NCBI GenBank assembly: GCA_965645245.1
Contig: OZ287086.1
Coordinates: 1,302,001 to 1,366,000 of the forward strand
DNA length: 64,000 nucleotides
Origin: Massalongia carnosa
Lineage: Eukaryota
Direction of reading: 5' to 3'
In this document: positions 20,665 through 52,199 of the stretch, one piece after another
Position numbering within the stretch: position 1 is the first letter of the stretch
Layout: each line of letters starts with the position of its first letter
Position numbers and translations under genes: made by a program
The notes under the pieces: model-generated
The model's database searches: none
The model's input: the letters and a program-made list of their open reading frames with translations, nothing else
What the model was told of the DNA's origin: nothing

Positions 20665-21825
20665 GTGCTGAGACTGTGGTGAAAATATGATGGCGCATGT
20701 AATACGGATGGCGCTAGAGGGATACGTGATCGCCTATGGCGGTTGCGGGATTAACTAGCGTGGACCATGCCGTAGTACGAAGTCGCATAAGCCGTCGAGG
20801 CTGACACGCTGACACACTGCCATCTTGCCCCGAAACTTCGGAGTTATTGTTATCACGTTCTTGACTACTTACAGATCAAACACCTGTCGAGGCCGTGGTG
20901 GTAGATTGCCATGGAGTGTAAGGCGGACTCCTGTGGAGACGCCAAGGAACTCTATATGGGATCTACTGGCCTACTCGGAGCTACTGGATCTCTTGATGGT
21001 TCAAGAGAGGTAGCAGGAGGCACGGCTCGCTGGACGCAGCTTGAGCTAGGCTCCCCGGTGTAAACTTCAGCTTCAACCTTTATTACTACGTTGGTAGTGA
21101 TGTCGGCTGAATGAACCTACATGACCTCGTTGTCTAGACCTTGTGTCTAGAGGCAGGTCCGCAGTGTAGCGAGGTATTCAGTCGGAGGTAACCTTCCATC
21201 ACTAGGTAGTGGTGACGGCGAAATGAAGCTACATAGCCTGAGGCATGTAGTGAGGGATCTAGCCGGGGGTAGAATTGTTCTACCTTGCAAGGGAAGGTCT
21301 AGAAGGCTGCTCGAGGCTGACTAGATGATCCAGCGAACGCCGAGTTCGTGGATGGATCCTGAGGGATGGTTGGATGTAATGCGATAAAGTCGGATGTGGA
21401 TTGCAAGGCTGTAATGCTCGCAAGACTCCCAAGGCTTGCAAGGCTCCTAAGGTTCCAAGGCTCCCAAGGCTATAGGCTTGGGGTGAGTAGGATAAATATC
21501 AGAACGAATCTTGTAGTATTCGTTAGCAATTAGTCTTTATTCTATGAACAACCTACGTTTGGGTCTCGGACGAGATCTCTTGGTCTAAGCACTTCCACAT
21601 CCATTAGTTCTTTGGATCACGTATACTCTCGGAGACTAGCACGTAGTAGCTATCTTCCTCCTCTCACGCTGAGCATTTCCCCTTTCGAGATCAGTGTCGC
21701 TCGTGATAAGCTTACTGGTCTCGTAGCCCACTACAATTCTAATTGCTCTCATACCCTACGGGTCAGCCAGCCCGTTTGGAGGAAGCTTAGCTAGTGGAGC
21801 CATCTGTTCTTGAACTCCGCAAACG

Positions 21826-29767: not shown

Positions 29768-32700
29768 TGTTGAACAAAAAATCAACCAGGCATACGGCAG
29801 CGGGATGCAGGAGAAGAGGGTCTAGGGCTTTCAAGGATAGGCAAAGAGAAGTGCTTGGCAAATGTGATGCAGGTACTCCGTATTTCCAGTGAAGATACTC
29901 CAAATTTAGCTATCTGCTGAACTGAATTCTGAACGACTGAATAGCTAAATTACATGAGGAATCATCGTCTCTTTATACTGCTTGAGGGCCTCCATCTCGG
30001 CCTATATCAAATGCATGAACCTGCTTCCTTTGAACCTTTTCAGCTGGGCAAAATACACCTCGTTGCTGACCGGAGACACCGAGACACTCAGTGATCATGA
30101 ACAGCTGAATTGCCTCCGAAATGTAGCATTCTTGTTGCATACTTTTGCCTCCTCGTAGTTGCCGAAGTCGTGCCGATATCTGAAGCTTTTCGCATATAGC
30201 ATATGATTGCCTAATCTGGAAATTAGTAAGCAGGAGGCAAAAGAACCTCGGTCGCAAATATTCAGGTATCTCGGCAAATTCCAATACTCCCACTCCGAGT
30301 ATCTGAATGGCTTCATACCCTCGCATGCCCAAAAACGAATTAAAAGAAATCCTCCGCGTTCTGCCCATCTGAACACGATGCTCAGGTAGGCCATGGGCCC
30401 TCGTGGGCCGATGTGGTTGCGATAAACTATCGCTAACTCTCTAGGTTTCCTTCATACCTAGTAGAGCACGTCCGCGTTCAAAAGCCGCCTTGGTCAAAGG
30501 CTTTGTTAGAATATCAGCTGCCATCTCGTTGGTGGGAACATAGCTGATTTGGATAAGTCCATCCTCCACTACCTCGCGAATGTAGTGATATTGCACATCG
30601 ATGTGCTTCGTACGTGAGTGGTTTTCGGGGTTTCTGACGAGTGCAATGGCCCCTTGATTATCACACCGAAGTTCGATGGCTCCTCTCTCTCTAATCCCAA
30701 GTTGCTGTAGCCAGCGACCTGCCCAAACGAGCTGTTTTGAAGCCTGGCATTGCGAAACGTATTCGGCTTCAGTGGTTGAGGTAGAAACAGTGCGTTGTTT
30801 CTTGCTGGTCCAGATGCATGCTGAATTTGCAAGAAGCAAAGTCATGCCATGTGTGGATTTTCGATTTTCCGAGGAATCGGCATAAGCCGCATCCGCGTAC
30901 CCTATGGGGGTGTTGCCTTTCGGGCTAGGGCCATAGACTAGGCCTAAGCTTGCAGTGCCTTTCAAATACCTAATTACTCTATCCAACGCAACTCGATGCT
31001 TTACACCTGGATCGTGACTGAATTGACTTAACTTGCCAATTGCAAAGGCTATGTCAGGTCTGGTACTTGTCATGGCATACATTAGACTTCCTATCCTTTT
31101 CTGATACTCCAGTTGGTCGGTCCTGGGTTCCGTGGGGGTGGCGGCAGTCAGTGCTGCATATCCATCAATAGGAGTTGAAACTGGGTGTGCATTTTCCATC
31201 CCATATTTCGAAATGAAGTTGTTGATGTACACTGACTGATCTAGTGTTAGATTTCTAGATTTTCGGTTCCTCCGCACTCGCATTCCCAGGATATGGTCCA
31301 CCTCTCCCAAATCCTTCATCTTATACTCCCGTTTTAGCTGTGCCTTGACTGCATTGATGCGGGATATTTTGGCGGCAAAGATGAGAAGATCATCGACGTA
31401 TACTGAGATAATGACGCCGGCTTGGAGGTTTATGAACACACAATTGTCGGCTGAGATTGGTTCGAATCCAATGGATCTCAGATACCTTCTGAACTTTCTG
31501 CTCCAGATTCGGCCGGATTGCTTGAGACCATAAAGACCTTTTTGCAGTAGAAGGGCCTTATTTTTTCCGTTCGGAACATCCATTCCCTCTGGTATTTCCA
31601 TGTAGATTTCTTCTTCCAACTCACCTTCTAAATAGGCATTTGAAACGTCCATTTGATGTGCTTCCAGGTTCAGTAACGCAGTAATTGCCATTAACATTCT
31701 CAGAGATTCGAACCTTAAGGTGGGTGCAAATGTCTCTTCGTAATCAATGCCATATTTCTGACTGAAACCTCTAGCACAAAGTCTGGCCTTGAACCGCTCA
31801 ATAACTGCGGCGGATGTGTATTTGATTTTGAACACCCATTTCGAAGTTATTAGCTCACGGTTTTTCGGCCTCGGCACGATGATAAACGTGCGTTTCCACC
31901 GCAGCGCTTCCAGCTCTTCTTCCGTTGCCCCCCTCCATTCACGGCGATTTGGTCCAGTCATGGCTTCCTTATAGGTAGCCGGTTCAGGCAATCGAGCTAT
32001 ATAAACGATAGCCATTGGTGCTTTTGACTTATCAAATGCCTTGGAGTCATACGGCTTTTTCGTGCGTCTTGACCGGGAAGATGCTGCGGAAACAAGCTGT
32101 TGATTTTTCGGTGGGAGCGTGGCTTTCTGCCCCCTTTTTGAATTCTGTGCTGGCTCTGGCGAAGTTCGCCCAGTAGTCGGCAGACCTTCGAATTCTGGCG
32201 CTCGGATTTCAGTTTCCGAGGTCTCGTTTCCTTCTTCTTGATTTCCCGGAGTTTCGCGATTTCCGGGAATATCGCCTTCATTCAGTGAGGGATTCTCTGC
32301 ACCCTCAATACTTTCTCCGGGAACATTATCGCCTAGAACTATTGCGTCGTCATTTTCTAGGTTTGATGTTCCCTGAAACTCTAAGGCTGTCTCAGGGTTG
32401 GTAAGTTTGTGCGTAGGAACTCCTTGTTCCTCATCCGGTTCGTAGTCCGAATCTGCAACATCTAACTCCCACTCACCCGGTTCCACTGGTGCGTTCAGTA
32501 AAGGGCCTCCTGGCCAATCCTCGAAAAACTTCACTGAGGTATGTACTCCCACTGTTTTCGTATCAGGATTATGCACCTTATACTGTCTTGATGACCGGAA
32601 TCCAACGAGAATTCCCTGATGGGATACCTTATCCATCTTCGCACGAGTTTCGCTAGGAACGTGCACGTGTACGAGGCATCCATAGGTCCTTATATGGCCT

Positions 32701-35700
32701 ACCTCTGGCTTCTTCTGGTGCCACATCTCATATGGGGTCTTCATATCAAACCGCTTCGACGGAAGCCGATTCTTCAGATAATTGGCAGACAGTACTGCGT
32801 CCCCCCAAAATGACCTAGGCAACCCAGACCACATCTGCATCGCTGATACCATCTGCATCAGCGTTCTATTGAGTCTTTCTGCAACCCCATTCTGCTCAGG
32901 GGTATAGGCCGTGGTAAACTCCACCACTATTCCTTCCGGCAATATCGTTCTAGCCAGTTTTTCATACTCCAAAGCGTTATCACATCGCAAGGTCCTGATT
33001 CGCTCCCCTGTCTCGATCTCGGCACGATTTTTGAACATCCGAAAGAGCTTTTCTAGCTCGCTCCTGGCCCCGAGGTAAACATCCGAGTAGCCGGTGGCTT
33101 CGTCGGTGAAGGACACAAAATACTTGGTCCCCTGGTTATTGGGCACCCGATATGGACCCCAAAAGTCTGAATAGACTCGTTCCAGACGGCGGGTAGCCCG
33201 TTCTGGTGGGTTTCGGTTGATTATTCGAGTCATTTTCGTCTGAGTACATGTGATGCATTTGCATTCCTTCTCATGGTCATGTAACTTGGCTCCCACTCCA
33301 TTAGTGGCTTCATGGAGACAGTGAGTCTGTATGCTCCCACGTGCCCCATGCGGCCATGCCATAGTAGGTATCGGTCTCTTTCTAATTGGGACCGAGTGCT
33401 AATTGCTTTTTTGTTGTCTTTTGCATTTTCTGGCATTCTTGGCAAATTCTGATTTCCGGACGATCTTTCGCTGATATTTGGATCAGAAGTAATAGGGATT
33501 TCTTCCTCGGGATCCTCAGTGGCTATCAGGGCCACTCCGCTTCCTGCGGATCGGAGCAGGTACGTTTTTCCCACCAAAAACCCGGTGGCGAGGCAGGTAC
33601 CTCTCCTCAAAATTTCGACGCAACTCAATCCAAACCTCACAATCATTCCTCTAGCTTGTAATGCCGAAATTGACAACAAATTCGCATCCAGCTCAGGTAC
33701 GTATAACACTTCTGTGAGTTTGAACTTCTTATCCTCCAGCTCCACAGCCACATCACCTTTACCAGGTGATTTAATCTTTACCCCATTAGCTATCGTCACC
33801 CAACTTACCTGCAGTGTAAAGTTTGTGAATAGCTTCCGATTGGCCGTCATATGGCGACTGGCCCCTGAGTCAATAATCCACTCATTCGGGGGTATTACTT
33901 TGGAAGTGAGTTTTGCCACTCTAGCAAAACTCTTAGGGGAGGAGCACTTCTGGGAAGTGCGATAGCGCGCCCCATTGTTGACGTAGTCGGTGTAATCCTC
34001 ATGGTCGCTCTGGTCCACGTGGTCAATGGCCATGCGACCGTACACTGACTCGTCGTCGCTATCCTCACTGTCGCTGTCCCTTGTGCCGGATGCTTTGCGT
34101 GCAAGGTGACCTCCTCGGCCCTTGCCACGTCTGCCATCCCTTAACTTTTCCTCTCCCTTACCTCCGTCCTTGGCTTTCTTGCCCTTTGATTGGGCCGTGC
34201 TGGCGGTATCTTCATTGTAGGCCTTGCCTTCGTCACTGGCAAGCCATTCAAAACACTTGGTTTTCACGTGACCAGGTTTCTTGCAGTGGTAACATTTCCC
34301 CTTAAACTTATAGGGCTTGGCGGAGACCTTATTAGCGATTTCATAGGGGGTCCCCGCGTTATCTCTGGCCATCTGCTCGATTTCCTTATATTTTTCAATC
34401 ACCTTCCGAAACGTGAGGTTTTCCAAGTCGTTTAATTGCAATTTCACCGCATTATACCGCTCGTGATCCACCGAATCCATTAGGACTAGGGCCATCATGA
34501 TATCGGATGGCTTCACCTCTGGGTTGATGTTTGCGATGATATCCCTCATATCTTCTAGCTCTGCTGCAGTCTCATCCACTCCTTCCTCTGCCTTGGCCTT
34601 ATACGTATGAAATCGGCGGAGCATGGGGACCAAGCGTGTCCTAGAGTCTTTGCCGTGAATTTCCTTTTGGGCATCCCATACCCCTTTGGCAGATTGCTGC
34701 AGTTGCACATGCTTCTGCTGCCTTTCATCCATGGCTCCCATGAGGATGGTGATTGCTGTGGCGTCATCAAAGATCCACGAGTCTCTATCCAAAGGCATGC
34801 TTCCTGGTGGTTCGAGTATCTCTCCACTGACTACTTTCCAGAGCCCTTTGGCAATTAAGTGCACCTTCAAAAGGTGGGACCACAGCCTGTAGTTGTCGCT
34901 AGTAAGTTTTGGCAGTTTTACTTCACCTTTCACACCGGCACCCCTTTTATATCCCCCATCAATGGCTGTCATAGCCGCTAGGCCCTTGTCCTTTGATGAG
35001 GAGGCCTTGCTAGCCTCGGGGGTGGTGGATGCCCTCATGGCACCTCCGGTATCTTGGCTGTCTTCTGAGGCAGACATTTTGGTGGTGAAGGAGTCGTCCT
35101 ATTCGAGTGCCGAAATGGATAGCTAGGAGTTCAAACAAGCACACGGGCTATATCCCCTAAGATAAAAGATCTAGTGATAAATACTCCTGGATTTGAATAG
35201 AGTGCTATCCGGGCTCATAACCTGTTGAACAAAAAATCAACCAGGCATACGGCAGCGGGATGCAGGAGAAGAGGGTCTAGGGCTTTCAAGGATAGGCAAA
35301 GAGAAGTGCTTGGCAAACGTGATGCAGGTACTCCGTATTTCCAGTGAAGATACTCCAAATTTAGCTATCTGCTGAACTGAATTCTGAACGACTGAATAGC
35401 TAAATTACATGAGGAATCATCGTCTCTTTATACTGCTTGAGGGCCTCCATCTCGGCCTATATCAAATGCATGAACCTGCTTCCTTTGAACCTTTTCAGCT
35501 GGGCAAAATACACCTCGTTGCTGACCGGAGACACCGAGACACTCAGTGATCATGAACAGCTGAATTGCCTCCGAAATGTAGCATTCTTGCTGCATACTTT
35601 TGCCTCCTCGTAGTTGCCGAAGTCGTGCCGATATCTGAAGCTTTTCGCATATAGCATATGATTGCCTAATCTGGAAATTAGTAAGCAGGAGGCAAAAGAA

Positions 35701-35741
35701 CCTCGGTCGCAAATATTCAGGTATCTCGGCAAATTCCAATA
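29768..35741 (-). mobile_element. Ty1/copia retrotransposon, full length, young
   Basis: 519-bp LTRs 29768-30286 and 35223-35741 (2 transitions seen), TSD CTTTT, PBS GGTTATGAGCCC, PPT GGAGTGGGAG. Confidence 0.95.
30441..35077 (-). CDS. Copia Gag-Pol with one frameshift near 33320
   Basis: CYHCKKPGHVKTKC, WIIDSGAS, WHGRMGH, integrase PEQNGVAER, YVDD, RNase H RTKHIDV. Confidence 0.92.
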
Positions 35742-36340
35742 CTTTTCACTCGCTTTTTCCAAGTCGGTTCTTTTCTTCGCCAACCAGCCTACGGATGTCT
35801 TGATCAGAAAAGTCAACAGTGCTCTTGAAGCAGCTAAGGCGTCAAATCCCATCTATGAAGTATTCCGGGGAACTTGTGTCGCGATCCGAATCTACGCCGA
35901 CAAGACTGAATCCGCTTACATCACCAGCCTGGCCGAACATCGATACCGCGAGACAACAGCGCGTGCGAAAGGAGACGAAAAGATGTATCTCGCTGAAGTC
36001 GTGGACGCACCTCATACTTCTTTCCATCATCGTCGATAAGGGATGCTCTTCCATTCCGAAAGTGGTTTAGCACGATTAGGGTAACTATTAGTAGCAATAA
36101 ACACGTCATACGATCTAAACCGAAAAGAGTTTAATGTGCTGTTGGCAGTTGCATTATAGTAACTGTTTAAGCATCTCGTTAAGCCTGGGCTTGACGTTTT
36201 CGGCCTTATATGGATATCATTCAGCCGCGCAACAATAACAGCTTGACTGATGCTTTCTATACCACTCATTTCCAAAGCCAGCCTCTGCACATTCCTACCA
36301 GGCTAGTTGTACAAGTCGAAGAAAGCTAGGACCTTCTATC

Positions 36341-39300
36341 ATGCCAGATAAAGATTTATGCCTATTATCTCTTGATGGTGGTGGAGTGCGAGGGCTATCG
36401 TCACTCGCAATCCTCAAGCGACTGATGGAGATCATCAATCCGGATGCGCCGCCGAAGCCATGCGAGTATTTCGACATGATCGGAGGGACAAGTACCGGTG
36501 GATTGATTGCTATCATGCTAGGTCGTCTTGAGATGAATATCGATGAATGTATTGATGCCTATGTCGCATTGTTCGATCAAGTGTTTAAAAAAAAGCGGCA
36601 TCGTGTCACAATAAACGGACACGTGCAGGGGAGATTCGACACGGAAGAGCTGGAACGGTCGATTCGAGAAATCGTAAAGCGGATGGAGAAGGCAGGGGAA
36701 AATGCTCTCCTCAAAGGATCAGAGAATCAGCAATGCAAGGTGTTAGTGCTTCGGAAGTTGCATTTACACGTATAATTCTAGTGATACTAATGAAAGCTAG
36801 ATTTGTATGCGCTCTGAGCAAAGAGACTGCCGACACAGTCCTTTTCACATCGTATCCTTCTCGAGGATCATCAGATATGTACCATAAGACACGAATTTGG
36901 GAGGCAGCTCGAGCCACATCTGCCGCATCATCCTTCTTTGATCCAGTTAAAATTGGCCAGTTTGAAGAAGAGTTTGTCGATGGGGCTGTGGGGGCTAACA
37001 ATCCTGTCGCACATCTTTGGAACGAGGCCAAAAGTGTGTGGTCAGATGAAGTGCTTGAGGGAAACATCAAATGCCTGATATCTATCGGTACCGGTGTTCC
37101 ATCCTTGGATTCTTATGGCTCAAGCCTCTTCGAGATTGCAAAAACATTGAAAGACATTGCAACAGAGACAGAAAAAACAGCGGAGTCTTTTCATCGAGCG
37201 CATTCCGATCTCGACGATGGGAATCGCTACTTTCGTTTCAATGTTTCTCATGGGCTTGAGAGTATTGGACTCGAAGATGCAGCACAGAAGAACAAGATCA
37301 TGGCCGCCACAACCCGCTATGTGGCTTTGGAAAGCGTGATGAAACAAATGAAGCTTTGTGGAAATAATCTTTCAACACGAGAATGTGCGTCAATGTTTGC
37401 TTGATAATTCTTGAGTTACTAAATCCTTGAATAGATAATGGTTCATATAAAGTGCCGTTCAGTTTGAAAGGCTTACTCCGTGTACCCAAATTCATAGCTC
37501 GTGATCAGGAAATGAATGACCTCAAGAATACCCTTTTCCCAAAACCAACTCGTGAGACTCGCCGGAAGGTGTTCGTTTTGCACGGACTGGGCGGCTCCGG
37601 CAAGACTCAGCTAGCAATCGAGTTCGCTCAAATATCAAAGAAGATTTTCAGTTCTATTTTTTGGCTAAACGGCGATAGTAAGGAAAGTGTAAGTCAAAGT
37701 CTTGCACAGATTGCTCGGCAATTACCCCCAGCTCAGATTCCGGATTCATGTATAAAATTCTCTAAAACATCCCCTGAAGAGCTAGATGAAATCATTAACA
37801 ATATTCTTATTTGGTTCAGTCGACATGAAAACAATCAATGGCTTCTCATTTTCGATAATGTCGATCGTTCCCTTGAGGTAAATGATCCTCAATCATATGA
37901 TGTGAGAGATTTTTTCCCGGAAGCCGATCATGGCTCTATTTTAATCACAAGCCGATTACGGCAACTTCGACAACTCGGGCAGGACCGGCAACTTGGAAGG
38001 ATGAGCGATCTACAAGGAGTAGAAGTATTACGATGCAGGATAGGACGATCAGTTGAAGGTAATGAAATTCAAGCAACAGTCTAAATCCAATTTACTAAGC
38101 ATTATATAGGCCTTGATAGGATCGTCGAGAAAGTGGGTGGTCTCCCACTTGCACTTGCTCATGCAGGCTCCTATATCCACGGAACGACTACAAGTGTGAA
38201 CGACTATATTCAATACTATGAAGAGACTTGGGAGAAGCTTCACAACAACAAAACGACCCGATTAATAGATTATCCTCGTAGCATTTTATCTACGTACACC
38301 ATTTCCTATGAACATGTGCAACACAATGACGCGAGCGCTGCAAAATTGCTTAATCTGTTTGCATATCTCGATCATTCAGATGTATGGTATTATTTATTCA
38401 CACATATACTTGACGAAGACGAGAGCATTATCCCAAAAGAGACATTACCTATCTGGTTTTCAAGTAGCGTGAAGACGGAATTTGATTTTACACAGAAGAT
38501 TCAAATACTGCTGGATTACTCCTTGATAGAAACACGATATGAGATCTCATCTTATGCGATTCATCCAATTATACATGACTGGTGTTTTCACTTGAATCTA
38601 ACCTCTAACGACGAGATAGCTTCTTTAGCAGTTTCTGTAATCGGTTCCGCATGTCATTCCACTGACAGTTCAGCAAACTGGCTGCATCGAAAACGACTGG
38701 CTGGTCATTGTAGTTATGTTCACTTCTGGATTGGAAAAAAACCTCAATACCTCGAAAGGAATATGAGATGGGAACAGGTATTATATTTTTCATATTTTGC
38801 TATTGGCTATTTTGCAAAAGAACAAGGCAAGCTGAAAGAGGCCGAAGAGATGTATCTGCGGGCATTGACAGGATACGAAAAGGCCAGGGGTCTTGATCAC
38901 ACATCAACGCTCGACACAGTCAACAATCTAGGAAATTTGTATAAACATCAAGGCAAGATGAACGAGGCCGAAGAGATGTATCTGCGGGCATTGACAGGAT
39001 ACGAAAAGGCCTGGGGTCCTGATCACACATCAACGCTCGACACAGTCAACAATCTAGGGATTTTGTATGCAAATCAAGGCAAGATGAACGAGGCCGAAGA
39101 GATGTATCTGCGGGCATTGACAGGATGCGAAAAGGCCAGGGGTCCTGATCACACATCAACGCTCAACACAGTCAACAATCTAGGAAATTTGTATGCAGAT
39201 CAAGGCAAGATGAACGAGGCCGAAGAGATGTATCTGCGGGCATTGATAGGATGCGAAAAGGCCTGGGGTCCTGATCACACATCAACGCTCGACACAGTCA

Positions 39301-40286
39301 ACAATCTAGGGATTTTGTATGCAGATCAAGGCAAGATGAACGAGGCCGAAGAGATGTATCTGCGGGCATTGACAGGATACGAAAAGGCCTGGGGTCCTGA
39401 TCACACATCAACGCTCGACACAGTCAACAATCTAGGAAATTTGTATAAACATCAAGGCAAGATGAACGAGGCCGAAGAGATGTATCTGCGGGCATTGACA
39501 GGAAACGAAAAGGCCAGGGGTCCTGATCACACATCAACGCTCGGCACAGTCAGAAATCTAGGGAGTTTGTATGCAGATCAAGGCAAGATGAACGAGGCCG
39601 AAGAGATGTATCTGCGGGCATTGACAGGATACGAAAAGGCCTGGGGTCCTGATCACACATCAACGCTCGCCACAGTCAACAATCTAGGGCTTTTGTATGC
39701 AGATCAAGGCAAGATGAACGAGGCCGAAGAGATGTATCTGCGGGCATTGACAGGATGCGAAAAGGCCTGGGGTCCTGATCACACATCAACGCTCGACACA
39801 GTCAACAATCTAGGAAATTTGTATGCAGATCAAGGCAAGATGAACGAGGCCGAAGAGATGTATCTGCGGGCATTGACAGGATACGAAAAGGCCTGGGGTC
39901 CTGATCACACATCAACGCTCGACACAGTCAACAATCTAGGAAATTTGTATGCAGATCAAGGCAAGATGAACGAGGCCGAAGAGACGTATCTGCGGGCATT
40001 GACAGGATACGAAAAGGCCTGGGGTCCTGATCACACATCAACGCTCGACACAGTCAACAATCTAGGAAATTTGTATAAACATCAAGGCAAGATGAACGAG
40101 GCCGAAGGGATGTATCTGCGGGCATTGACAGGATACGAAAAGGCCAGAGGTCCTGATCACACATCAACGCTCGTCATAGCCAACAATCTAAGAATTCTGT
40201 ATGCAGATCAAGGCAAGATGAACGAGGCCGAAGAGATGTATCTGCGGGGCTCAAGCGGCTTACCTGTGCCAGGTATGACATTCTAG
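36341..40286 (+). CDS. Fungal NLR: patatin-like phospholipase / NB-ARC / TPR; exons 36341-36741, 36801-37384, 37435-38058, 38110-40286
   Basis: DGGGVRG, GTSTG, DGA patatin motifs; GLGGSGKT P-loop, LLIFDNVD Walker B, GLPLA; three GT..AG introns with CTAA branch sites keep the frame. Confidence 0.92.
38820..40247 (+). repeat. High-identity 126-bp tandem array (11 full + 1 partial TPR)
   Basis: CAAGGCAAG recurs every 126 bp. Confidence 0.95.
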
Positions 40287-41499
40287 GCAGGACAAGGCCT
40301 GATGACATATTCAAACGTCAAAATGAAATCAAATCAATACCGTCTGAAAGCTAGTTGAATCTTGCTGGCAATGGTGGAATTGAAATTCTATCGTTCAGCT
40401 GAGAGGGAACTTGAAGGTAAGGGGCGCAGGGGCGCAAGGCGTACGGGGGAAGTTTCAAATTTCTTGACATCTTGTCTGGCTGTGCCAATTCGGATCTAAT
40501 AGGAATTGAAAGAGAGTAGAGGTTTAAAAGGGAGTAGTGATTGAAAAGTGATAGGGACTAAAAAGCCCCAGTCATTTTAAAGCCTTGGGCATTTTTTCTG
40601 GCTGAAGATATCATGTTTCACAGGAGTTTAATATCGTTTTTTAATATTGCTACTATGGTACATAACGGTCTAGATAGTGGCCCCAAGGATAAAACCATTA
40701 TCTCTGACTTCATGTGTGTTGCGCCGAGATACTCTCCATCTATAACGCGGTACAGTTCATGTATGATTTAGGCAGCCATGTTAGATGAATGTTAGATGGA
40801 GGTAGCTATCCTTCGTAAGAATACAGTGATTGATAGGTAAGGTCAGCATACGCACGATTGCCCCCGAAGTGAGCGACCCAAGTCTGACCTGTCCATGGCC
40901 GATGATCTGCTCCATGATGATGAGTCTTTAGACAGAAGGGACATTGTACGTATACTCCTAGGCTATTCCATTCGGTCGCTGTTACAAATGGTACGGTAGC
41001 CATGATTTTGAAGCTGGAATGTTGCGAGGGAGTAGAGGAGCCGAAATTGGGAGCTAGGGCGATACGAGAGTTGATGCTGATGATGACGTAGTAGTCATAG
41101 GCTACAAGGAGCGAAGAACCCATAAGAACCCGAGATGGTCATGAGACTTACCATTCGACGCATCGAAAACAGCAGAAGGTATGGAATTAGTCAAGCTCGA
41201 TGCCGAACCGAAGCTTTTCTATGGGGAGGCAACTTATTATGGCCGCTCGTAAGGTGGTGACCTCAATAGGAATTTATGTAACCAATCTGCACGCAAAGGC
41301 CGAATGACAGTCAAGTGGGCGTCTTGTGAACCAACTCCGCAAGGTTCTGCAAGTGCATTGTGCTTGTCAAAACATCTTGACACCATGGATGAGGGCATGC
41401 GATTGGATGACCGTCTTGGTGATGACGAAGGTGTTTACAATGAAAGTGCTTTTTCAGATCGTAGCGGCTGTGGAAAGACTTCAGACGTGTCTCGGTGGA

Positions 41500-43720
41500 T
41501 AGCGCTACACAGCCGAGGCAAAAGATATATTGAGTGGGTTCGCATTCAATCGGGATGGAGTCTGAAAGAGAGGCTGGATCGAGGACAGATGGTGGTGTTA
41601 GATGCCTTCCTTGACGACCGACGTGGACGCTTGCCTTCCTGCAAGTGACAAAGGGCTGTCAAAGCTTTGATCTCTTCCACCCGCCGTCTGCACTCTTCCT
41701 TGGGGATGACGTCGCGAAGGTGAGGAGGATATCGATGACCCGGACACGCCCCTCGAAGACGTAATCCTCTGCCTTCGCCGTCTCCAGTTCTACTGACGGC
41801 AGTCCTTTCAGCTTTCGTTGAATGTCGATTACCGGCTGCTCCCTCTTACACCTCGCGTTGACCTCTTGTAAAAGAGCCTCCTCTGCCGCCGTTTTATGTT
41901 GCGATGAGCTTGATAAGCCTTTTAGTACTTATTGTACACTGATGTCCCCTTCATGCTCGCGATGGGTCCATGATTGTCTTTGATGAACTGGAACATTTTC
42001 TTTTGCCTCCGGCGAAGGAGTCTCACCTCTGGGTGACGATCTACCTGGGCTTTTTGGGCGTCATTGAGCTTCTGAGGCCGTCGTCGATCAATCGTACGAC
42101 TCATTCCACTGACGAGTCGCATCAACGCAGTTTGCGGCTTCAAATCACGATAGACGGCCCCGATATCACTTGTGATATACCTCGAGAGATAGCATTTTAA
42201 GAACACAGTGGAGTTGTGATGTTACAAAATCAGATTCCGTTGCGATTCGCTGATGAAGCCTACGCAAGGGTCAGCGAAAAGCTCAAAAGAAGATTGACAG
42301 AGGTTGTGTTACACACTTGCTGTTGTCGAGAGCTTCGCTATTGCCGCGTCGAAAGATGTATCAATCGGTGGGAAGCTTCATGCCGGTGACGCTTTCAAGG
42401 ATTATCATCCCTGAGCGAAGAGTACTGTCAGGCAGAGCTTTGTCATCCGAAATTCAAACCCCGTTCACGGTGACTTCGGATCGGCGGAAGATGAGAACGT
42501 GTAGCATCTTTTTCTTATGGTGAAACGGCAGCTATTTCTATTCCAGGGAGATCCGAAGATGGAATAACTGTTCGGCAGAAATCAGTTCAGGAGCGGCGAA
42601 GGCCTGATCGATAAAGATCAAAGTGAGTAGGTTCAGAGGAGGACAAAGCAGCAGGCATGGTTCGTCAGGCTCGTCAGGAATCCTGAACTCGTTTTTATGA
42701 TCTTGTCAGTCGTTCAGCGAAACTGTCCGTCTCGACGAAGAAAGCACAAAAGGGCAACACGGACGTTTCTTTATCGCCTAGATAGCCCTTCGTATTCTTG
42801 AATGCGATTTCAATCAACCGTCGAGGAAGCTCCCCTCCTTTAAGATCCGGAAGCAAGGTGATCTTAGCATCTTTGTAGCACACACTCAAGAGGGTAGCAG
42901 GACGGTTGTCTGTGATTCCGGCTAGCTGCATGATCAAGGCTAGTTGTACACGGTGCCGCTCGTGATCAAAGACGATCTCGACGGAGAGAAACAATGTCTT
43001 CAGGAGCTCGAACTCGTCCTCGGCCCGCATGATGAGCTTCTTCTTCTTCTTCTCAGCCCTTAACCCATGCTTTAGAGCGAGCCGTTATCTCACCTAGTAC
43101 TGGTTAATCAATAGAGGCGTAGAATCGGGCTCTCGTATCCCGTGCATCTGGCTTTTGATAAGCGGGTCGATCTCTAGACAGTCAGTCTCTTTCTTTCGCA
43201 CTAGGCAAAAAACATTCCAGTATGTTTGCAGGGTACTAGCCGCACTCAGCCGATCTTTTCGAACGGAGAGTAGCCAGTCGAAAAAGACGTATAGGATGTT
43301 GATAGAGATCTCCTTGAGAGCCATGACGGGGTTCTTCCCAGTGAATTCGCAATATCTATCAGCCTCGATCAGATTTCGCCAGTCCACTTATTGATAGTAG
43401 TAGTAGCATCTCCTTACCAATACCAAAGGTTCTTAATCCAGCTCTGCAGATCCTCGCTGCTGTCCTTGTAAACTCGTTCAGGGAAAATTAGAGTCGATGA
43501 GCGTGGACGATAGATAATCGATGTGAAGGAGGGACGACGAAAATGAAAGTGGGAGAATAAGAGGGTTGGAAAGGCGAAGATGAAGGGTAGAGGGACACGA
43601 AGAGAAGGGTCGTCAGAGACGATGGGAACGGAGGGGAAGCTGAGCAGAACAGCCGATTCTGGAGGTCGGGGGGGCACGATGAAATAAATACCTGGTGTCG
43701 GACAAGGACCATGAGGACCA
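41500..43720 (-). pseudogene. DUF3435-type tyrosine recombinase (Starship captain family), degraded
   Basis: FDHERHRVQLALIMQLAGIT.NRP..LL, TKGYLG, NEFRIPD..EPCLLLCP..DQAF, YIFRRG, HHNSTVFLK.YLSR, MSRTIDRRRP; several stops; ends approximate. Confidence 0.8.
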
Positions 43721-45671
43721 GCTGAGTGATGATGCTTGAGGCATGAAACGCTCGACGTGGTGAGGTGGTGCGCAAGAGCGACCGGGGACGGGTAGGGCGG
43801 CGGACAAATCCAGCAATATAGAAGCTGAAACAAATAATATGAGGAGAGAAGCTGCAATTTATGATTTGAGAGTGGAGGACTGAGCGCCTTGAGGTCTACT
43901 TTCGCGTTAGCAGGTGCGTTCTAGCTGCGCGAACTAGCTAACTTACACTCGATATGCGTTTGAGAAGAGAATTTTGATATGTGGCTTTTAGATGGCAGAC
44001 AGTCTTTAATTATAAAATCTTATAAGTATTCCTCACATTGATGAAGATGAGAGATGGACCACTTCATTTCATTTCAGGCTTGTTTTCTCTGCCCACAAAA
44101 AGGTCAGTAAATATTTTGATCTCGAAAATATAGGCACACATTAACTCACTTCTCAATGACTCTTAGAGGCCATCTCTTCTATGTTTGCTAATAAATAACA
44201 CACCAGGCTGTAACTAAATAACAAGGGTGTTTACATTGATATATGACCTCGGTATAATCACACATGTTAAGATGAAAGGCAGCAGAAACGAGATTAAAGA
44301 ATCTAACAACCTGGCGAGAGATAGAAGTGCTTCTGAAGGAGAGAGAGGTTTAAATAGACTTTGCATATACGGCGAAGAAAGCCTCTTTCTATATGCTTTC
44401 CGATCTCGTTCTCTAGACAAAGTCATCATCCTGCGCCCCTAATCTCAACAGAGCAGAATACATAGTCATCGCACATTCTTGTCCAGAACCCCTCCAGCAA
44501 TAGTGAGCTGCATACTTTATACTAGTCAGTAGATGTTTCATGACCTAAAATCATTGTCTGATGTAAAGAAGACCGAGCCCATAGGGATCATAATCCCATA
44601 AGCTGCCTTCACAGCGAATCAAAGTATCATATACGCCACAGATGTCTCCGTTGAGGACGTACATGAGAACCGGGGAACCATACGGTCTTAGGCAGATTGC
44701 AGCTGAATTTCGGGTGAAACTAGCCTCAAGTGATAGAGCAGCAGTGACGCTCATATCCGCTTGAGAATCTATAAGTCCTCAGTTTGAAACAAGATCATCA
44801 ATCTGGAAGACTTTGTATACCCTAAACCTGCTAACAGCAGCGAAGGATGTTCTTTGATCTCAGAAATTGATCTATCTGATTGATGGATGAATTCAGCTTG
44901 CTCTGAGATTGAGTTGTCGAAGAGTGAGATAGCCGATAGAGGGTATTGTCTATTATAATGTATTTCAACTCTGCTTTCTCTGTAGGCTATGATCTCGCGG
45001 TGGAATCATCGTGCAACCACCTTCAACGAAGCGACTTTGAACTGTTTGAATACTCGCTTAGCCCCATTAGTTCTAGCTCAGCCCTGCAGTCACCTCCGTA
45101 GTAATTTCAACATTATGCCGTCAACTGTTCATTTAACAGGTTATGGGCCCGGTTAGCCTATAGTGCTGCCGAGTGATTTTCTTGTGTCAGTTTCGAGGTT
45201 ATACATAACGAGATGGCGGACCAACGCGACTCCACAGACCCCCTAATACACCAACAAGTATGACAAGCCCTTCCCCTCCTCCCTCTTCATCTTCTGGCCC
45301 CGATGGGCAGTATTCAAAAGCGGTAAGGAAATGGGATATAAGGGTAGAGCCCAAGCTAGGTGCCGATAATTATTTAACCTGGGCGGAAGAGATGTGGATT
45401 CAGCTTAAATCTATGAGAGTCCTCTAGTTAGTAGAAGGAAAAACCCCTCAACCAGATACAGTAGCCCGACCAAAAGACTTTGACGAATGGGACCACGATG
45501 ACACCAACGCATTGAAATGGATACGGGCCAACTGTGAGAAAAGCCAATTGACTCACCTTCGAAACAAAACAACATCCAAAGCCGCCTAGGACGCTCTAAA
45601 GAAGGTCCATGGAGTCCACGCCAGAGGAAGAATCAACTATTTATTGAAGCGATTCTATACCTACAAGGCGA

Positions 45672-45912
45672 TCATCGGTCCTCCTCCTTCTACACCATCG
45701 GTCCTCCTTCTTCTACACCATCGGTCCTCCTCCTTCTACACCATCGGTCCTCCTTCTTCTACACCATCGGTCCTCCTCCTTCTACACCATCGGTCCTCCT
45801 CCTTCTACACCATCGGTCCTCCTCCTTCTACAACATCGGTCCTCCTCCTTCTACACCATCGGTCCTCCTCCTTCTACACCATCGGTCCTCCTCCTTCTAC
45901 ACCATCGGTCCT
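45672..45912. repeat. 23-bp minisatellite CCATCGGTCCTCCTCCTTCTACA x about 10
   Basis: Seen directly. Confidence 0.95.
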
Positions 45913-46356
45913 CACCACGGAGACGCCAAAGGCCTCACCGTGGGGCGACCGTCAAACATAGATTTGCTCCCATCTCTTCGCATCAAAACAATGCTAATTT
46001 AACGCGTTCACACGCGTCGCAGACGTCCGTACGGAAGAGGATTCGAAGGCCAACTGCCGGGGTGTCGCATGCGCGCGTCCCTGCACCATGCTTCTAAGGG
46101 TTCAAGTCCCTTCATGCAGTCATCAGCTGGAAGAAGATGTGGACCAAAGGAGCCGCATCACCCCCCACCCTGGCACAGTCGACACGAGTTCTAGCTCCTG
46201 AAAGTTCAAGTCTCCCTATGCAGTCATCAGCTGGAATCAACAGAACGCGTACAGGCACCGGTGCGAATGCTGCCACCTCAAAGAAAACTCTATCACGGAG
46301 CGGAATAACAAAATCTCAGTTAACAGGCCCGGCTTGTTAAATAAAATCGAGGAAAG

Positions 46357-46517
46357 CACAGAGTCACAAAACACAGTCACAAAGCACATAGTCATAAACC
46401 ACACAGTCACAAACCACACAGTCACAAACCACACAGTCATCAAACACACAGTCATAAACACACAGTCACAAAACACACATTCAAAAAACACATAGTCACA
46501 AAACACACAGTCACAAA
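46357..46517. repeat. About 15-bp tandem CACAGTCACAAACCA
   Basis: Seen directly. Confidence 0.9.
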
Positions 46518-48507
46518 TCAATAACACGTCCCTGTGTAGGGGGTTCTGCGGGGGCTCGTTAAGGCAGATCTGCATCTCGTTAATATCGGAGTACATATTT
46601 TTAGAGATTCAAGTCCTTTCTAGCAGTCAGCAGCTGAAAATAATGTATTTTGACACGGGCATGGTGTGGATTTGACACGGGTAGACCTCGATGGATCACA
46701 AAACGAATGAAAAGAGTTTAGCGAAACTTCGTTAATATTGTTCTCGAAGACCTCGTTAATAAGATTTTCATAGACCTCGTTAACAACGTTCGGTCATACT
46801 CTTAAAGGTTCAAGTCCTTTCATGCAGTCATCGGCTGAGAGTTAGAGACGTACGACACGGGTCAGCTATGTCTATCACACGGGTCTCCTTCGTCTACAAC
46901 ACGGAGCCCTTCGGCTGAAAGAAATAAAACATATAGACACATAGTGTAGGGTCACACCCTACACGATACAAGGGATTTGGGTTATGAAAACCATCCAATT
47001 GATGGCTACCGTGAGCAACACGGCCCGAACCGGAGTCGTACCGGGGATGGTGGAGGCAACCTAGTCATGAAATAGGACATCCTTGGGACAAGAAGAGGGC
47101 AATATACGAGGAACCCGTTAATTGATAACAGTCTAGGCCCTGAGCTAATAGACGAATTTCAAATGAGCACCCCTCCGAGTTGTCCTCGACTCGTTTTGGT
47201 TAGTAGGGACGGAAAATCGATACTATACTGCCTGGTCAGGAGCATAGTGGTCGAAATCCCTGCGAGACATGGTCGGTTCATAAGCGGGAGACCTTTATGA
47301 ATAACGCGAAGTGGGCGTAAAAAACCCGTGAGGCGTGGTATGCAATGGCGGCCACCGTACGGAGACCGTCTGCATAGCCCGAGAGGACAGTATGCGCATG
47401 TCGGTGTCTATAGAGCAGGGAATGTCTATCTCGCTCGTAATGAGACCCCGTCGGTTCGCCAGCGCATGGGCTACGGCTAGACTCGCCCTTGATATATGCT
47501 TAAGGAGTAAACTGGGTTTGACCTGGGCGAAAGGGACGTCGTTCACCCCAATCGTAGAATTCATCAATAGTCTTGGGCCGTAAAACGCACCAGTGAGATG
47601 AACGAAAACTGGGATAGAGACTTCACGAAGGAGATGTCAGCTCTATTTTATCATTCTTAGACGACGACTGCGAACGATGGCCCGCTCGCCACGGCTCCGT
47701 ATTCGCGCCACACAAATACGAGCTGATACAACTGGCAAAGAATCCAAAGAAATTCAACCTGGACGCATCCTTCGCGGTAAGAGGCAAGATCCTGAAGACC
47801 AAGACTTCGATAAGAGTCCTGGGAGTATACATTGACACTAGTCTCGATTGGGCAGCGCATTACAAGGAAATTCAGAAGAAAATGACGAGACAAACAATGG
47901 CACTAACCAAAATCGCAGCCTCAACCTGGGGGGCGACCCTCCTACAAGCCCGCCACGTGTACACAGCAGTGATACGCCCCGCCATGTCGCACGGCTCGAT
48001 AGCATGGCACATGCCAGCCGAAGCAAGAAAGAAAGCCAAAGTCGAATCAAGAAGCAAACTCGAAGTCATACAAAACAAGTTGTTTACGAGTCATAGCCGG
48101 AGCGTAAAAGGCCTCAATTGAAGTATTACAGGCAGAAACCCACATCCCTCCCTTAACGCAACATCTAGACCGCTTACAAGCAAAAACGAGATCCAGACTC
48201 TCGAACAGCGAACAGGAAAAATTATAAAGCAGGCGTGCAATAGAATTCAAGTGAAACTCAGAGGAAAAAGAGGTCAATCGCGAGTCGCAGAGAAAACACC
48301 GGGAACTCGTAAACGAGAATGGGTAACAAAGATGACGAAAGACGCACCGAAAACAGTTAAACTGGATCAACCCTCTCCCCGTCCCTGGACAACGATCGAC
48401 GAGGCACAGAAGAGACAATGCACAGCGCAAGTAACGACGCAGAACCAACGAGAAGGGATAATAAAGAAGCACTTTGAGAATCAGTGGATCAACAAGAGGA
48501 AAGCATA

Positions 48508-50676
48508 GAAGATTTCCCGAGGAAATGCCGCACCCGACGAAATGCCGCATCTTCTCACTTTCCAACCATTACTTTCAAACATGAATAAATCCACCCTCAA
48601 CGCTCGTATCGAGCTCGCAATTGCTGATCTGAATCAGCAAGATCAGCCTAACCTCAGGGGTACAGCTAAAAAGTTTAGCCTAGTCGAAAGTACCCTCCGG
48701 AGGCGCTGGAAAGGCCAAACGGTGTCCCAAAAGGCAGCCGCGTCAAAATACAAGCAACGACTTACCTTGGCCCAGGAAGAGGCCTTAATTCAGCAAATCA
48801 ATCGCCTTGTCGATCGTGGACTGCCCCCAACCGCTATAATTGTACGAAACCTAGCGGAGGAGGTGATAGGAGGGCCTGTAGGGAAGAACTGGACAGGGGA
48901 TTTTGTCCGCCGATACAAGGATAGGCTTAAAAGTCTTTATCTTCGAAATATGGATAGCCAGCGTATAAAATCTGAGTATCCGCCTTTATTTAAGTAATTC
49001 TACGATTTGGTAGCGTGTTAACTACCCATTCCTATTTATTGAATATTAATTATGATCGAAAATAACTAATGTTTCTATTAGCTAGTCGCCGGTGTCGAAA
49101 AATACAATATCACGGGGGAAAACCTTTACATTTGGGACGAAAAGGGCTTTGTGATTGGCCAAGCAAGTGCCACGCAACGTATCATGTCGCTAGAGGCCCT
49201 CGAATCAGGACGGATCACACATGCAAGCCAGGACGGGAATAGGGAGTTTATCAGCCTCCTTGCTTGTATCGGGGCCGACGGAACCGCTTTACCTCCTGCC
49301 TTGATCTATAAAGGCGACTCTGGCATACTCTAGGATACATGGGTTGAGGATGTAAATCCTAATGACGAGGCGTTCTTTGCAGTATCGGCGAAAGGATGGA
49401 ATTGTGATATCCTTGGCCTGAATTGGCTAGAGCAGATTTTTCAGCGTTATACGAAGCAAAAGGCTAGAAATAGAAGACGTTTACTGATAGTAGACGGTCA
49501 TTCTAGCCACGTGAATCTTAAGTTTATCGATAAATGCGATAACTTACGTATTCTTCTCCTGATTCTACCTTCGCACTCTACGCATCGTTTACAGCCTCTG
49601 GACGTTTATCTATTCGCGCCGTTAGCAACGTTCTATACCAATGGGCTGAATAGACTAATGTTCGATAGTCTAGGCATGATAAACATGTCAAAAAGAGCCT
49701 TTTGGAGCGTTTTCTTCCCTGCATGGCAGCAGGTATTTTCGGAGGAAAAAATTACTTCTGCCTTCGAAAAAACCGGTATTTGGCCTTACAATCCGAGCCT
49801 TATACTAAATGTTATCACACCACAGATAATCGAGGCTCCTTCTCAGTCGCCAAAAACACCAATGACAAGCCGTGCTATTCGCCGTACGCAGCGAGCGTAC
49901 GATATTGCGCCTACGAAGTTATTACTAGGAAAGTTCTTCCGGGCTAACGAACGCCTTGCTGCCCAGGACTCTATCAACAAACACGTGATCAAAGGGCTCT
50001 GCAATACCCTTCAGGACGAAAAGAAGAGGAGGAAGAGAGGTAATCGGCTTAGTTTAGTTGGGGAAGAGGACTCAGGCCCTCAATTCTTTAGTCCTAGGCG
50101 AGTACAGGCTGCCAGGATATTTCAAGCAGCAAAAGAGGAAGAAGAAGCACAACGCCAGCTAGATATTAGCGAGAAGCGACGACAAGCTACTGCTAAAAGG
50201 TTACAGAAACAAGAGGTGAAGCTAGAAAAGGTAGCAATCGCTCTAGAGAAGCGGCGATTGACTGCAGAAGCAAAGGTAGCAAAGGCCGCTGAGAAGCAGG
50301 CTCAGAAGGAGTTACGTAAAGCAGCAAACAGATATCCTAAGGGACAGCTCGGGCAGCAGAAGCAGTATACAGGGTCTAATAAAGTTCAAAAGACTCGAAA
50401 GAAGAAGGTAAAGCCGCCTACTCGTGTTATTATCGCTAAAGAGGTAGAGGAGGTGGTTTTAACTACCTCGACTGGAAGAAGAGTCCAGCGCCCAGGGCGT
50501 TTTGCTATGTAAGGTTTTTAGGGTCGGATATCGTGTACATAATTTCTATTTATACTATATTTAAAACACATTCCATTAATCGTTGTAGTTGTTGATTAAC
50601 GACGAAAACAATATTCTAATGCCGAATTGTAAAGTGCGGCATTTCGCCGGGCGCGGCATTTCCTCGGGAAATCTTC
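48508..50676 (+). mobile_element. pogo/Fot1 transposon D inside the LINE; transposase 48581-50512 with stops
   Basis: About 42-bp TIR GAAGATTTCCCGAGGAAATGCCGC.., TA TSD; WDEKGF, DGHSSH, HSTHRLQPLDV; CAA>TAA and CAG>TAG stops. Confidence 0.92.
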
Positions 50677-52001
50677 TATCAAGCAAAACACACGTTATAT
50701 CCCACGATCGCACAACAGGCGCCTATACACAGGAAAAGGCTTAACGCACACAAGTTACTAGACAAAGCGCAAAGCTCACTGGCAACACAGATAAGAACGG
50801 AAAAAACCGGACTGGCCAACTTTCTATATCGGCGCAAGGTCCCAGGTGTGAGCTCGGCGGCATGTCCCTGCGGAAGCCTCTTACAACAGCCAAACATGTA
50901 ATCATGTTCTGCAGACTGCACGAACACAGAACGCACATGCTACGAACGGCAGGCTCGTCAGACTACCGCAAGCTAATCACCGAACCCAAAGCTCAATGTA
51001 GTAACCGCGTGGCTCATGCGCACAGGTATTTTAACACAGTATTCCATTGCCACGCAACTGCTTGAACAGCAGCCGGGCAGTCTCTCTTCAGTTTGAAAAA
51101 CAGGTATCGCAGATTTTCGAGATACAGGAATCAATCCGCGGGAGCGGCGAACCCCCGATGAAGCGGATACGCAGGAGTAGTTTTTCACCTTCGGGTTTTC
51201 TACTTAATACATAGCTTATATAGCATCTCCCGCATGGGCCGGCCTTCGGCCGGTGACACAACGGCGTAAAAATAATCAAATCAAACACCTACAAGGCTGG
51301 ATTCAGCGACTCCATCGATGATATAGCAGGAGCCCTTGAGACCTTACGAGTCCAGATTGCGGACATAAAATCGGAGTTTGAGCCTCACGATACATTGATG
51401 GCCATAGCCCTGATGAGTGCCGTGGAGGACCCTGCATTTGATACAACAAAGCTTTTATTGGAAACGGGAACCCGAGCTTACCTTGGAAGCAACTAAGGAG
51501 GCCTTGAAAGCGCCGGAGCAGCGACTAAAATTCGAAAAGGATGACTCAGTCGAGGATGCCCATCGAGCGGATGCAAAAAAGGGTAAAGGGCCACCAAAGA
51601 AGTGCGACCAGTGCGGGAAACTTGGACATATCCGAATCTATTGCTGGAGCTGGCTCGATGACACCGACGAAGGTCAGGAATGGGAACGCACTCATCCAGA
51701 GCAACGGAGGAAACCGAAGTCCAAATCCGAAACACCAAAACCTGAACCCAAATTGAAATCACGGAGTACCACTAGGCCTACCTCCACGAGCAATACCAGT
51801 TCTTCCAACTTCTGTGGCCGAAGCAAAGGCACTGCCCGGCCGGCCAATGAAGAGGACTTTGACGATGGTGCCAGCAAGGATGAGGGGTGGATGGCCGTGG
51901 AAATAAAAGAGGAGGTTATTGATGAGAAAGTTGAAAAATTAGAAGAAATTTTTGAAGTCCGTGAAGGTGCGGAGGATAAAACTAGTGGCTGGATGCTAGA
52001 C

Positions 52002-52199
52002 GAGGTGCTTAGGGACAGTCCCCCCCCGGACCGTCCCCCCCTGTGTAAATCTTTGCTAGTAAACAGCCATTTCACTGCTTATCCAGGGTGCGTAAAAGCT
52101 AGTAATTCAACTGCCAACAGCACATTAAACTCTTTTCGGTTTAAATCGTATGACGTGTTATTGCTACTAATAATTACCCTACTCGGTCTGATAAAGCAT

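Follow-up and report, generated by a model that had tools for sequence, protein, structure and literature searches.

We examined a 64,000-nucleotide stretch of Massalongia carnosa DNA (assembly GCA_965645245.1, contig OZ287086.1, positions 1,302,001 to 1,366,000 of the forward strand), referred to here as the window, in whose numbering all unprefixed positions are given. Near its middle, the remnant of a DUF3435 tyrosine-recombinase gene, the "captain" of the mobile elements known as Starships, lies tail to tail with an intact gene predicted to encode a NOD-like receptor (NLR). That the recombinase is the fossil captain of a Starship-type lineage we regard as very probable. With much less confidence, but as the reading we prefer, the locus as a whole would be what is left, as a fossil, of the 5' part of a cargo-carrying tyrosine-recombinase element of the Starship type. 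That the receptor was cargo of this recombinase's element has, in our judgment, an even chance or slightly better.

The recombinase pseudogene runs on the minus strand from about 43580 to 41311. Four of the seven minus-strand frames between 40806 and 43387 match the Pfam family DUF3435 (PF11917), at 42695-43084 (E 2e-20), 42538-42705 (7e-11), 41922-42221 (1.3e-25) and 41659-41928 (4.6e-08). These matches lie in different frames and extend over profile positions 2-399 of 418; the remaining three frames were without a Pfam match. The original prediction had read a stop-riddled minus-strand recombinase here and had named a search with this profile as the check; that search was run, and the matches in shifted frames, the best at 1.3e-25, bear it out. 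To list the lesions, we aligned the window to its closest relative, a recombinase gene on a metagenome contig (L009), with frameshifts and introns allowed. The two are 68% identical over 592 aligned residues, and the L009 gene has an unbroken reading frame when four short introns are taken out. Three of these four ancestral introns are kept in the window with GT..AG borders (43417-43364, 42760-42688 and 42312-42260), while the second, read by eye, starts with ATACGA where a GT donor is expected. In addition to this lost splice donor, the pseudogene has no ATG (the frame 43920-43414 upstream holds no methionine), seven exonic stops (43087, 42540, 42534, 42456, 42363, 42224 and 41924) and three frameshifts, all in the last exon (at about 41885, 41700 and 41608). 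An initial count of 11 stops and 6 shifts, obtained with a distant guide and no intron model, was dropped because several of these were intronic or artefacts of intron phase.

The motifs NRP, TKGY, FRRG, HH and YLSRY, which we take to form the active site of the recombinase, are still encoded at the aligned positions, so the gene was killed by truncating lesions and not by loss of the active site. The pseudogene spans about 680 codons and includes the N-terminal part. When a 231-residue N-terminal frame, with X at the stops, was searched against 1.84 billion representative proteins, 263 relatives were found at E<=0.001. Most are short fragments and a few are full-length, with 37-55% identity; the named relatives are from Vezdaea aestivalis, Polycauliona sp., Coniosporium, Baudoinia, Aulographum and Pseudocercospora. 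One recombinase fragment, P0002, is 82% identical and is encoded on a 33-kb contig.

The recombinase decayed without sign of repeat-induced point mutation (RIP). RIP is indicated by a TpA/ApT ratio above about 0.89 and a (CpA+TpG)/(ApC+GpT) ratio below about 1.03; for the pseudogene these values are 0.62 and 1.17, respectively. The changes assigned to the window lineage comprise 79 C>T/G>A, 45 A>G/T>C and 64 transversions. In a RIP-affected control, the related recombinase at L022:6873-9065, 151 of the 152 lineage-specific changes are C>T/G>A. The copy represented by L022 and L030 is thus clearly RIP-inactivated, in contrast with the window copy. As to age, contigs from four public runs cover the recombinase remnant at 1.3-4.3% divergence from the window, so it occurs in related samples too and did not arrive recently. 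At position 42224 all four runs have G where the window has A, and the codon reads CAA in place of the stop; at least one lesion therefore postdates the split from those samples. The 5-nt difference seen at 43388 falls in intron 1 and leaves the reading frame unaffected. Depth in the four runs was lowest over 40.3-45.0 kb and higher over the TPR array of the receptor and the flanking repeats, which suggests that the remnant is low-copy, contig depth being a poor measure.

The mobility of the lineage can be read from its relatives, which supply the strongest evidence of the analysis. A search of metagenome contigs with a four-sequence alignment returned 35 loci (L001 to L035), whose recombinase DNA is 65-74% identical to window positions 41301-43486. 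Beyond this interval, similarity continues only in a 132-nt stretch past the stop codon (41167-41298), and no nucleotide homology with the relatives was found outside 41167-43486 and the TPR array. We compared the loci with one another at >=85% identity and then read the junctions. Homology starts at one sharp point 300-470 bp upstream of the recombinase, outside which the flanks are unrelated and AT-rich. Three groups share a common start and have unrelated flanks: L003 (= L004), L009, L010 and L011; L014, L015 and L020; and L025 and L026 (= L027, L028). GC outside the boundary is 0.12-0.39 in 15 of 16 loci, the exception being L015 (0.53). On the downstream side, L015 and L020 are 99.98% identical over 12.2 kb, up to the end of the fetched DNA, and L009 and L010 are 98.7-99.6% identical over 9.8 kb, one 2.7-kb insertion excepted.

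Immediately inside the boundary, ~130 bp are conserved even between groups, and a profile of this end sequence found 22 sites in 21 of the 35 loci (L003, L009-L011, L014-L016, L018, L020, L022, L025-L028 and L030-L035; for example L009:9535-9663). Twenty-one sites are upstream of the main recombinase copy and in the same orientation, and the remaining one accompanies a second, inverted copy in L020. Among the 14 loci without a match, the upstream DNA is too short in six (L001, L002, L005, L019, L021 and L024), a piggyBac-like transposase fragment lies upstream in L006/L008, and an inverted partial recombinase copy abuts the gene in L007/L012; in L013, L017, L023 and L029 the flank is sufficient and the end motif was not found. 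Recombinases in head-to-head pairs were seen twice. In L020 (4288-6462 and 10077-12236) each has its own end sequence, and in L007 (8853-9955 and 9970-12026) a partial inverted copy abuts the full one.

A quick maximum-likelihood tree was built from 37 query-anchored recombinase rows, leaving out L029 (low cover), L024 and the near-identical L004, L012, L014, L020, L025, L027, L028, L030 and L031. The window copy falls inside a 12-row clade with full support in the Shimodaira-Hasegawa-like approximate likelihood-ratio test (SH-aLRT 100). Since eight of the other 11 rows of this clade carry the end sequence, the ancestor of the window copy very probably had it too.

The relatives also differ in what they carry. 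Related elements of different history are alike at the end and in the recombinase and little further: between L003 and L009, for example, the likeness stops ~340 bp past the gene, where different genes follow, a cargo turnover as described for Starships. L025 and L026 diverge ~320 bp after the gene. We scanned 125 of the 147 frames of at least 150 residues, overlapping and duplicate frames having been dropped. The genes found downstream of the recombinase include those for BTB-domain proteins, OTT_1508 deaminases (in three groups), SIR2, ankyrin-repeat proteins, HET proteins and kinases, and, as the first downstream gene and convergent with the recombinase, an NB-ARC–TPR receptor in L003, L026-28 and L031-32. 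Counting only distinct elements for which 4 kb or more of DNA follows the gene, these represent 3 of 13. The OTT_1508-like deaminase recurs 2-5 kb downstream of the recombinase in its three element groups (L009:14454-15353, L007:16698-17798 and L022:14067-14873). The receptors at L003:5412-8505, L026:13060-15799 and L032:13865-17430, which belong to three recombinase groups, are 71-92% identical in DNA, and the recombinases of L003 and L026 have no DNA match at >=85% despite their similar receptors. Similar receptors behind different recombinases hint at receptor exchange between elements or at recombinase swapping.

In the window, the 5' region of the relatives can be followed part of the way. 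A profile of their upstream region matches window positions 43484-43350 (E 6e-27) and, further out, a leader remnant at 43490..43727 on the minus strand (nhmmer E 1e-06, with high composition bias), which corresponds to positions 217-463 of the relatives' 5' region. The first ~216 profile positions, including the conserved end, have no match in the window. By extrapolation the lost end would have been at ~43.93 kb, judged from the profile position, or at 44.04 kb, judged from the distance to the start codon; the expected zone is 43728..44050, and it holds no recognisable end sequence. GC falls at the extrapolated end from 0.56-0.62 to 0.33-0.37. Beyond it lies ~1 kb of low-copy AT-rich DNA, followed by a miniature element derived from pogo (45043-45152) and further remains of transposons. 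A 5' boundary had been predicted between 43.7 and 45.0 kb; the interval itself is reasonable, given the extrapolation, and neither an end sequence nor a direct repeat turned up in it. An AT-rich piece at about 44020-44050 looked vaguely end-like by eye, scored nothing and was rejected. The orientation of the recombinase relative to the NLR fits a captain that is the first 5' gene and is transcribed inward, the end itself being undetectable here.

The receptor gene (36341..40286, plus strand) has four exons (36341-36741, 36801-37384, 37435-38058 and 38110-40286). Its three introns, derived by hand, each have canonical GT..AG borders and a branch site. The single open frame of 1261 residues contains, in order, a patatin-like lipase, an NB-ARC domain and TPR repeats; Pfam matches on its frames are Patatin (8e-16), NB-ARC (5e-06, above the cut-off) and TPR_12 (7e-124), as well as AAA_16 and TPR_10. 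The motifs GGGVRG, GTSTG, DGA and GGSGKT are visible, and we assume for them the functional meaning they have in such proteins. The TPR array is a tandem repeat at 38819..40248 on the plus strand (126-bp unit, 11.3 copies, 94% matches in Tandem Repeats Finder). To judge from its sequence, the gene encodes a fungal NLR (a signal transduction ATPase with numerous domains, or STAND, receptor) of patatin–NB-ARC–TPR architecture. It is colinear with full-length homologues, in keeping with the earlier description of an intact patatin-NB-ARC-TPR gene. With a 1175-residue protein of Vezdaea aestivalis it shares 68% identity, with 11 gaps in 1153 positions and none from residue 1 across the first two exon junctions. 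Identity is 82% over 540 residues with a protein of Pseudocyphellaria aurata, 85-90% with one cluster (eight member sequences, on contigs of 0.2-2.4 Mb) and 62-58% with others. An 85%-identical protein, P0279, has one TPR repeat fewer, and the number of TPR repeats thus varies. The C-terminus of the receptor (…RGSSGLPVPGMT) comes abruptly in mid-repeat. Because this end is common to the 85%-identical relative, it is old and not a fresh breakpoint.

The two genes converge. The receptor stop is at 40286 and that of the recombinase near 41311, leaving a spacer of ~1.0 kb (40287..41310), in which a frame at 40809-41138 has no Pfam match. Adjacency was therefore called correctly in the original prediction, and its distance of about 1.2 kb is somewhat too large. 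Within the spacer, 41167-41298 resembles the sequence that follows the related recombinase in L007/L012 (blastn, 74% over 136 nt, E 1e-13). If lesions had accumulated in the receptor as in the recombinase (12 disabling lesions in ~2.0 kb of coding sequence), about 22 would be expected in its 3.8 kb; none is seen. The receptor would then have been kept by selection, on the assumption that the recombinase and the receptor have spent the same time at the locus.

The dead captain, the position of its relatives at the 5' end of multi-copy, gene-carrying units and an NLR where the first cargo gene would be expected agree with the Starship-like interpretation originally proposed. The ends of the element and a specific kinship of the receptor are the parts of that interpretation that did not come through, and a number of results weigh against our preferred reading. 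In searches for the end sequence, local alignment in the window gave scores within the range of shuffled sequence, the end-sequence profile run over the whole window gave best matches of E 4.7 and worse, elsewhere than in the expected zone, and two motif searches remained at chance level with nothing near 43.7-45.0 kb. Inverted repeats across 35744-45200 were at chance level as well; the best flanking pair matches at 15 of 17 nt, and by our own estimate about three such pairs are expected. No direct repeat or target-site duplication was found in the window. No empty site is bridged by contigs of the four public runs, in which all 30 bins are covered and short contigs are 95.7-99.9% alike. One low-depth joint in run X3 (39024>45072) was discarded because it joins two repeat families. 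Neither DUF3723 nor a ferric reductase (FRE) was found among the 108 frames of at least 90 residues that were scanned in the window. The window recombinase also sits on a long branch, pairing with the degenerate L006/L008 copies; its exact sister is unsure, and long-branch attraction is possible.

The remaining points of this kind concern the receptor. Its NB-ARC exon is 93, 83, 77 and 74% identical to lichen-fungus proteins, while its NB-ARC part is 43-49% identical to the receptors beside related recombinases. NB-ARC–TPR proteins across the ascomycetes form a plateau at 40-47%, equal to the element-borne receptors. As the element-borne receptors are no closer than this general plateau, the comparison does not support a shared descent of recombinase and receptor as a pair. 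The N-terminal domain differs too, being a DUF676 esterase in the L003 receptor and a patatin in the window. In 10 of the 13 related elements other genes occupy the first position (BTB domain, OTT_1508 deaminase, SIR2, ankyrin repeats, kinases), and NLR genes are common in transposon-rich DNA anyway.

The receptor could instead be an ordinary resident gene, beside which a Starship-type element landed, or was brought by later rearrangement, and then lost its cargo and ends, leaving only the dead recombinase. We consider this possible, if rather unlikely. It is favoured by the graded series of closest receptor relatives in lichen-forming fungi (the 85-90% cluster, 82% in P. aurata, 68% in Vezdaea, 62-58% in others), by the odd C-terminus shared with the 85% relative, which excludes a fresh breakpoint, by the element-borne receptors being no closer than fungal receptors in general, and by the abundance of transposon insertions and fragments in the region. 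On the other hand, wherever two copies of this family were compared, the DNA that directly follows the recombinase belonged to the interior of the element. The gap here is only 1.0 kb, and 130 bp of it are still like the post-recombinase sequence of a relative. Moreover, a gene of the same type follows the recombinase in the same orientation in three related elements.

The original prediction had gone further and suggested that much of the DNA between 1 and 44 kb is cargo of a large immobilised Starship. Such an element, which would fill most of 1-44 kb and carry the sugar transporter, a HeLo-like frame, a TPR fragment and the NLR, seems improbable to us. In the available text of PMC13486527, Starships are often more than half nested transposons, and 1-44 kb is indeed transposon-rich. 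A weak match to the end sequence at 4609-4625 is oriented as expected for a 3' inverted repeat, but it is at chance level (E=11) and has no 5' partner. Left of 36 kb, comparison with 15 related loci showed in common only part of a transposase near 17 kb, bits of retrotransposons and TPR matches of a generic kind. Most of 1-44 kb is made up of unrelated transposons, two of them very young. The left side holds pogo, Gypsy and Copia elements and a Crypton-like recombinase, which are independent elements, and boundary evidence of any kind for a 1-44 kb element is absent. A relic of a small recombinase-only transposon, or a host-recruited gene, that never carried cargo is very improbable: the similarity of L003 and L009 only to ~340 bp past the gene, and the divergence of L025 and L026 ~320 bp past it, could be read as a 3-kb unit, but in the pairs L009/L010 and L015/L020, whose upstream flanks differ, 98.7-99.98% identity persists over 9.8-12.2 kb past the gene, and no locus has a reverse-complement copy of the end sequence within 10 kb downstream, the sole minus-strand match (L020) lying upstream and coming from the second, inverted recombinase.

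On the preferred reading of a cargo-carrying element, the recombinase would have cut and rejoined DNA at the end sequence and a partner end, so that the unit moved to an AT-rich site. There the recombinase gene would have been worn down by ordinary point mutations and small indels rather than by RIP, and the terminal ~200 bp would have been lost or degraded beyond recognition. With these gone, the unit would be immobile even if an enzyme were supplied by another copy. The convergent patatin–NB-ARC–TPR receptor would, with roughly even chances, have been the element's first cargo gene, which selection kept intact while the recombinase rotted, and it would now be, in effect, a resident gene. A more general proposal, which we offer as doubtful, is that in this clade of Starship-type elements, shared by lichen fungi and black rock fungi, an NB-ARC–TPR receptor whose N-terminus is of lipase type (patatin here, DUF676 esterase in L003), placed tail to tail with the recombinase, is a recurrent first passenger that is kept as a host immune gene after the captain and its conserved ~130-bp recognition end have decayed. 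Elements would in this way seed fungal NLR repertoires, and the unit here might be compact, with the recombinase and one receptor in ~8 kb (36.2-44.0 kb).

Public runs that contain pieces of 36-46 kb are labelled lichen metagenome or have coded organism names, and named protein relatives from lichen-forming fungi likewise fit a lichen-forming ascomycete as the probable host. The surroundings of the two genes are rich in transposons. In the window 121 open frames of at least 90 residues were listed, of which 108 were scanned against Pfam; the other 13 lie between 36251 and 43391, and a separate Pfam scan covered most of that stretch. The Pfam scan, together with self-comparison for the transposons, identified the end of a MULE transposase (1-486), a sugar-transporter gene in two frames (1831-3761), and pogo/Tc5 elements and fragments (10017-12701, 15407-17647 and 48505-50679). 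An open tyrosine-recombinase frame of the Crypton type at 5112-6608 on the plus strand (485-499 residues) is unrelated to DUF3435. Its Pfam matches, Phage_integrase (E 4e-4) and SAM-like (E 0.03), are both weak, and a language-model search for look-alikes points to clusters from eukaryotes named "DNA breaking-rejoining enzyme" (score 0.94). The frame seems to belong to an intact element of the Crypton type and would be a second kind of recombinase element in the window.

The HeLo-like gene noted earlier is probably the 345-residue open frame at 8446-9480 on the minus strand. This frame has no Pfam match even at E<=1 (neither HeLo nor SesA), and its look-alikes in the language-model search, PigL_N/SesA clusters with a HeLo-like N-terminal domain (score 0.92; the family is present in 39% of the members), are only a lead. 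The orphan TPR fragment, also noted earlier, is real (18395-18796, minus strand, TPR_10, E 3e-36). A Gypsy element occupies 20698-27230 and has 1038-bp long terminal repeats (LTRs) that are 99.9% identical by self-blast. Beside the NLR lies a young Copia retrotransposon (29768-35743, minus strand), with 521-bp LTRs 99.6% identical and matches to RVT_2, gag and Pol_BBD; it inserted after the Starship-type element and is no part of it. With LTR pairs at 99.9% and 99.6% identity, retrotransposition into the window is recent. Further Gypsy and Copia pieces are found from 53.6 kb onward.

The low-copy block that holds the two genes is bordered by repeats. On the NLR side the first is a short multi-copy repeat at 36073..36156, ~185 bp upstream of the NLR start, with a 94% inverted copy at 52103-52185 and loose contig ends at 36073, 36100 and 36156. 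The first multi-copy repeat on the recombinase side is the miniature at 45043..45152, which by self-blast is a derivative of the pogo element at 10017-12701 and shows many loose ends at 45086-45089 and raised depth. In contigs of other samples, 45669 is joined straight to sequence matching 51298, so 45670-51297 is either an insertion here or another repeat copy; it contains a tandem repeat (23- or 69-bp unit, 45673-45913), a long interspersed nuclear element (LINE) fragment and the nested pogo at 48505-50679. An Rfam scan of the window found no 5S rRNA, other rRNA, tRNA or any other family, so an element targeting 5S genes is not indicated.

Several features of the locus have been described elsewhere. 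The available text of PMC9156397 (Gluck-Thaler et al. 2022) gives a working definition of "Starship-like" regions, in which DUF3435 occurs together with patatin-like phospholipase (PLP)/NLR genes and target-site duplications are absent; the locus is a Starship-like region in this sense. Degraded regions of this type with persisting accessory genes are described in the same paper, pseudogenised recombinases in PMC11162782 (Gluck-Thaler & Vogan 2024), and, for lichen fungi, unplaced recombinase genes close to PLP/NLR genes in PMC13486527 (Tagirdzhanova et al. 2026), each as far as its available text goes. The locus is therefore of a known kind, a further example of degraded Starship-like regions. 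As in the regions of PMC9156397, among them Derelict of Macrophomina phaseolina, patatin and NLR functions occur with a DUF3435 recombinase, target-site duplications are missing, and an accessory gene persists beside a degraded recombinase. According to the same passages, Derelict has no DUF3435 at all, while here the pseudogene is readable from end to end; and unlike those regions, the locus has only one accessory gene, with patatin and NLR fused and no DUF3723, FRE or separate PLP. With Tangerine and 16 other unplaced tyrosine-recombinase genes of Xanthoria (PMC13486527, in the available text) it shares a lichen-associated host, PLP/NLR genes nearby, transposon-rich surroundings and elusive boundaries. 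The mixed clades of that paper are paralleled by the relatives of the window recombinase in lichen fungi and black rock fungi. The Tangerine captain, as described there, has 283 residues and lacks the core-binding domain, and the Tangerine repeats are RIP-affected; the window pseudogene of ~680 codons includes the N-terminal part and is without RIP. Insertion into strongly AT-rich DNA, seen in 15 of 16 flanks of the relatives, recalls the Phoenix and Prometheus families as presented in the available part of PMC11162782, most of whose insertions are of this sort; the likeness is one of insertion niche only.

Degraded Starships in which cargo survives longer than the recombinase are believed to shape the accessory gene content of fungi, and lichen fungi have only recently become part of this picture. 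The locus described here is a readable example, in which each lesion of the recombinase can be named individually; one or more of these, among them the stop at 42224, are missing from related samples. A by-product of the analysis may be more useful: the conserved 130-bp 5' end, with its sharp homology boundary, applies to the whole recombinase clade and can serve as a probe for both ends and for empty sites in the genomes of lichen and rock fungi, where automated tools often fail.

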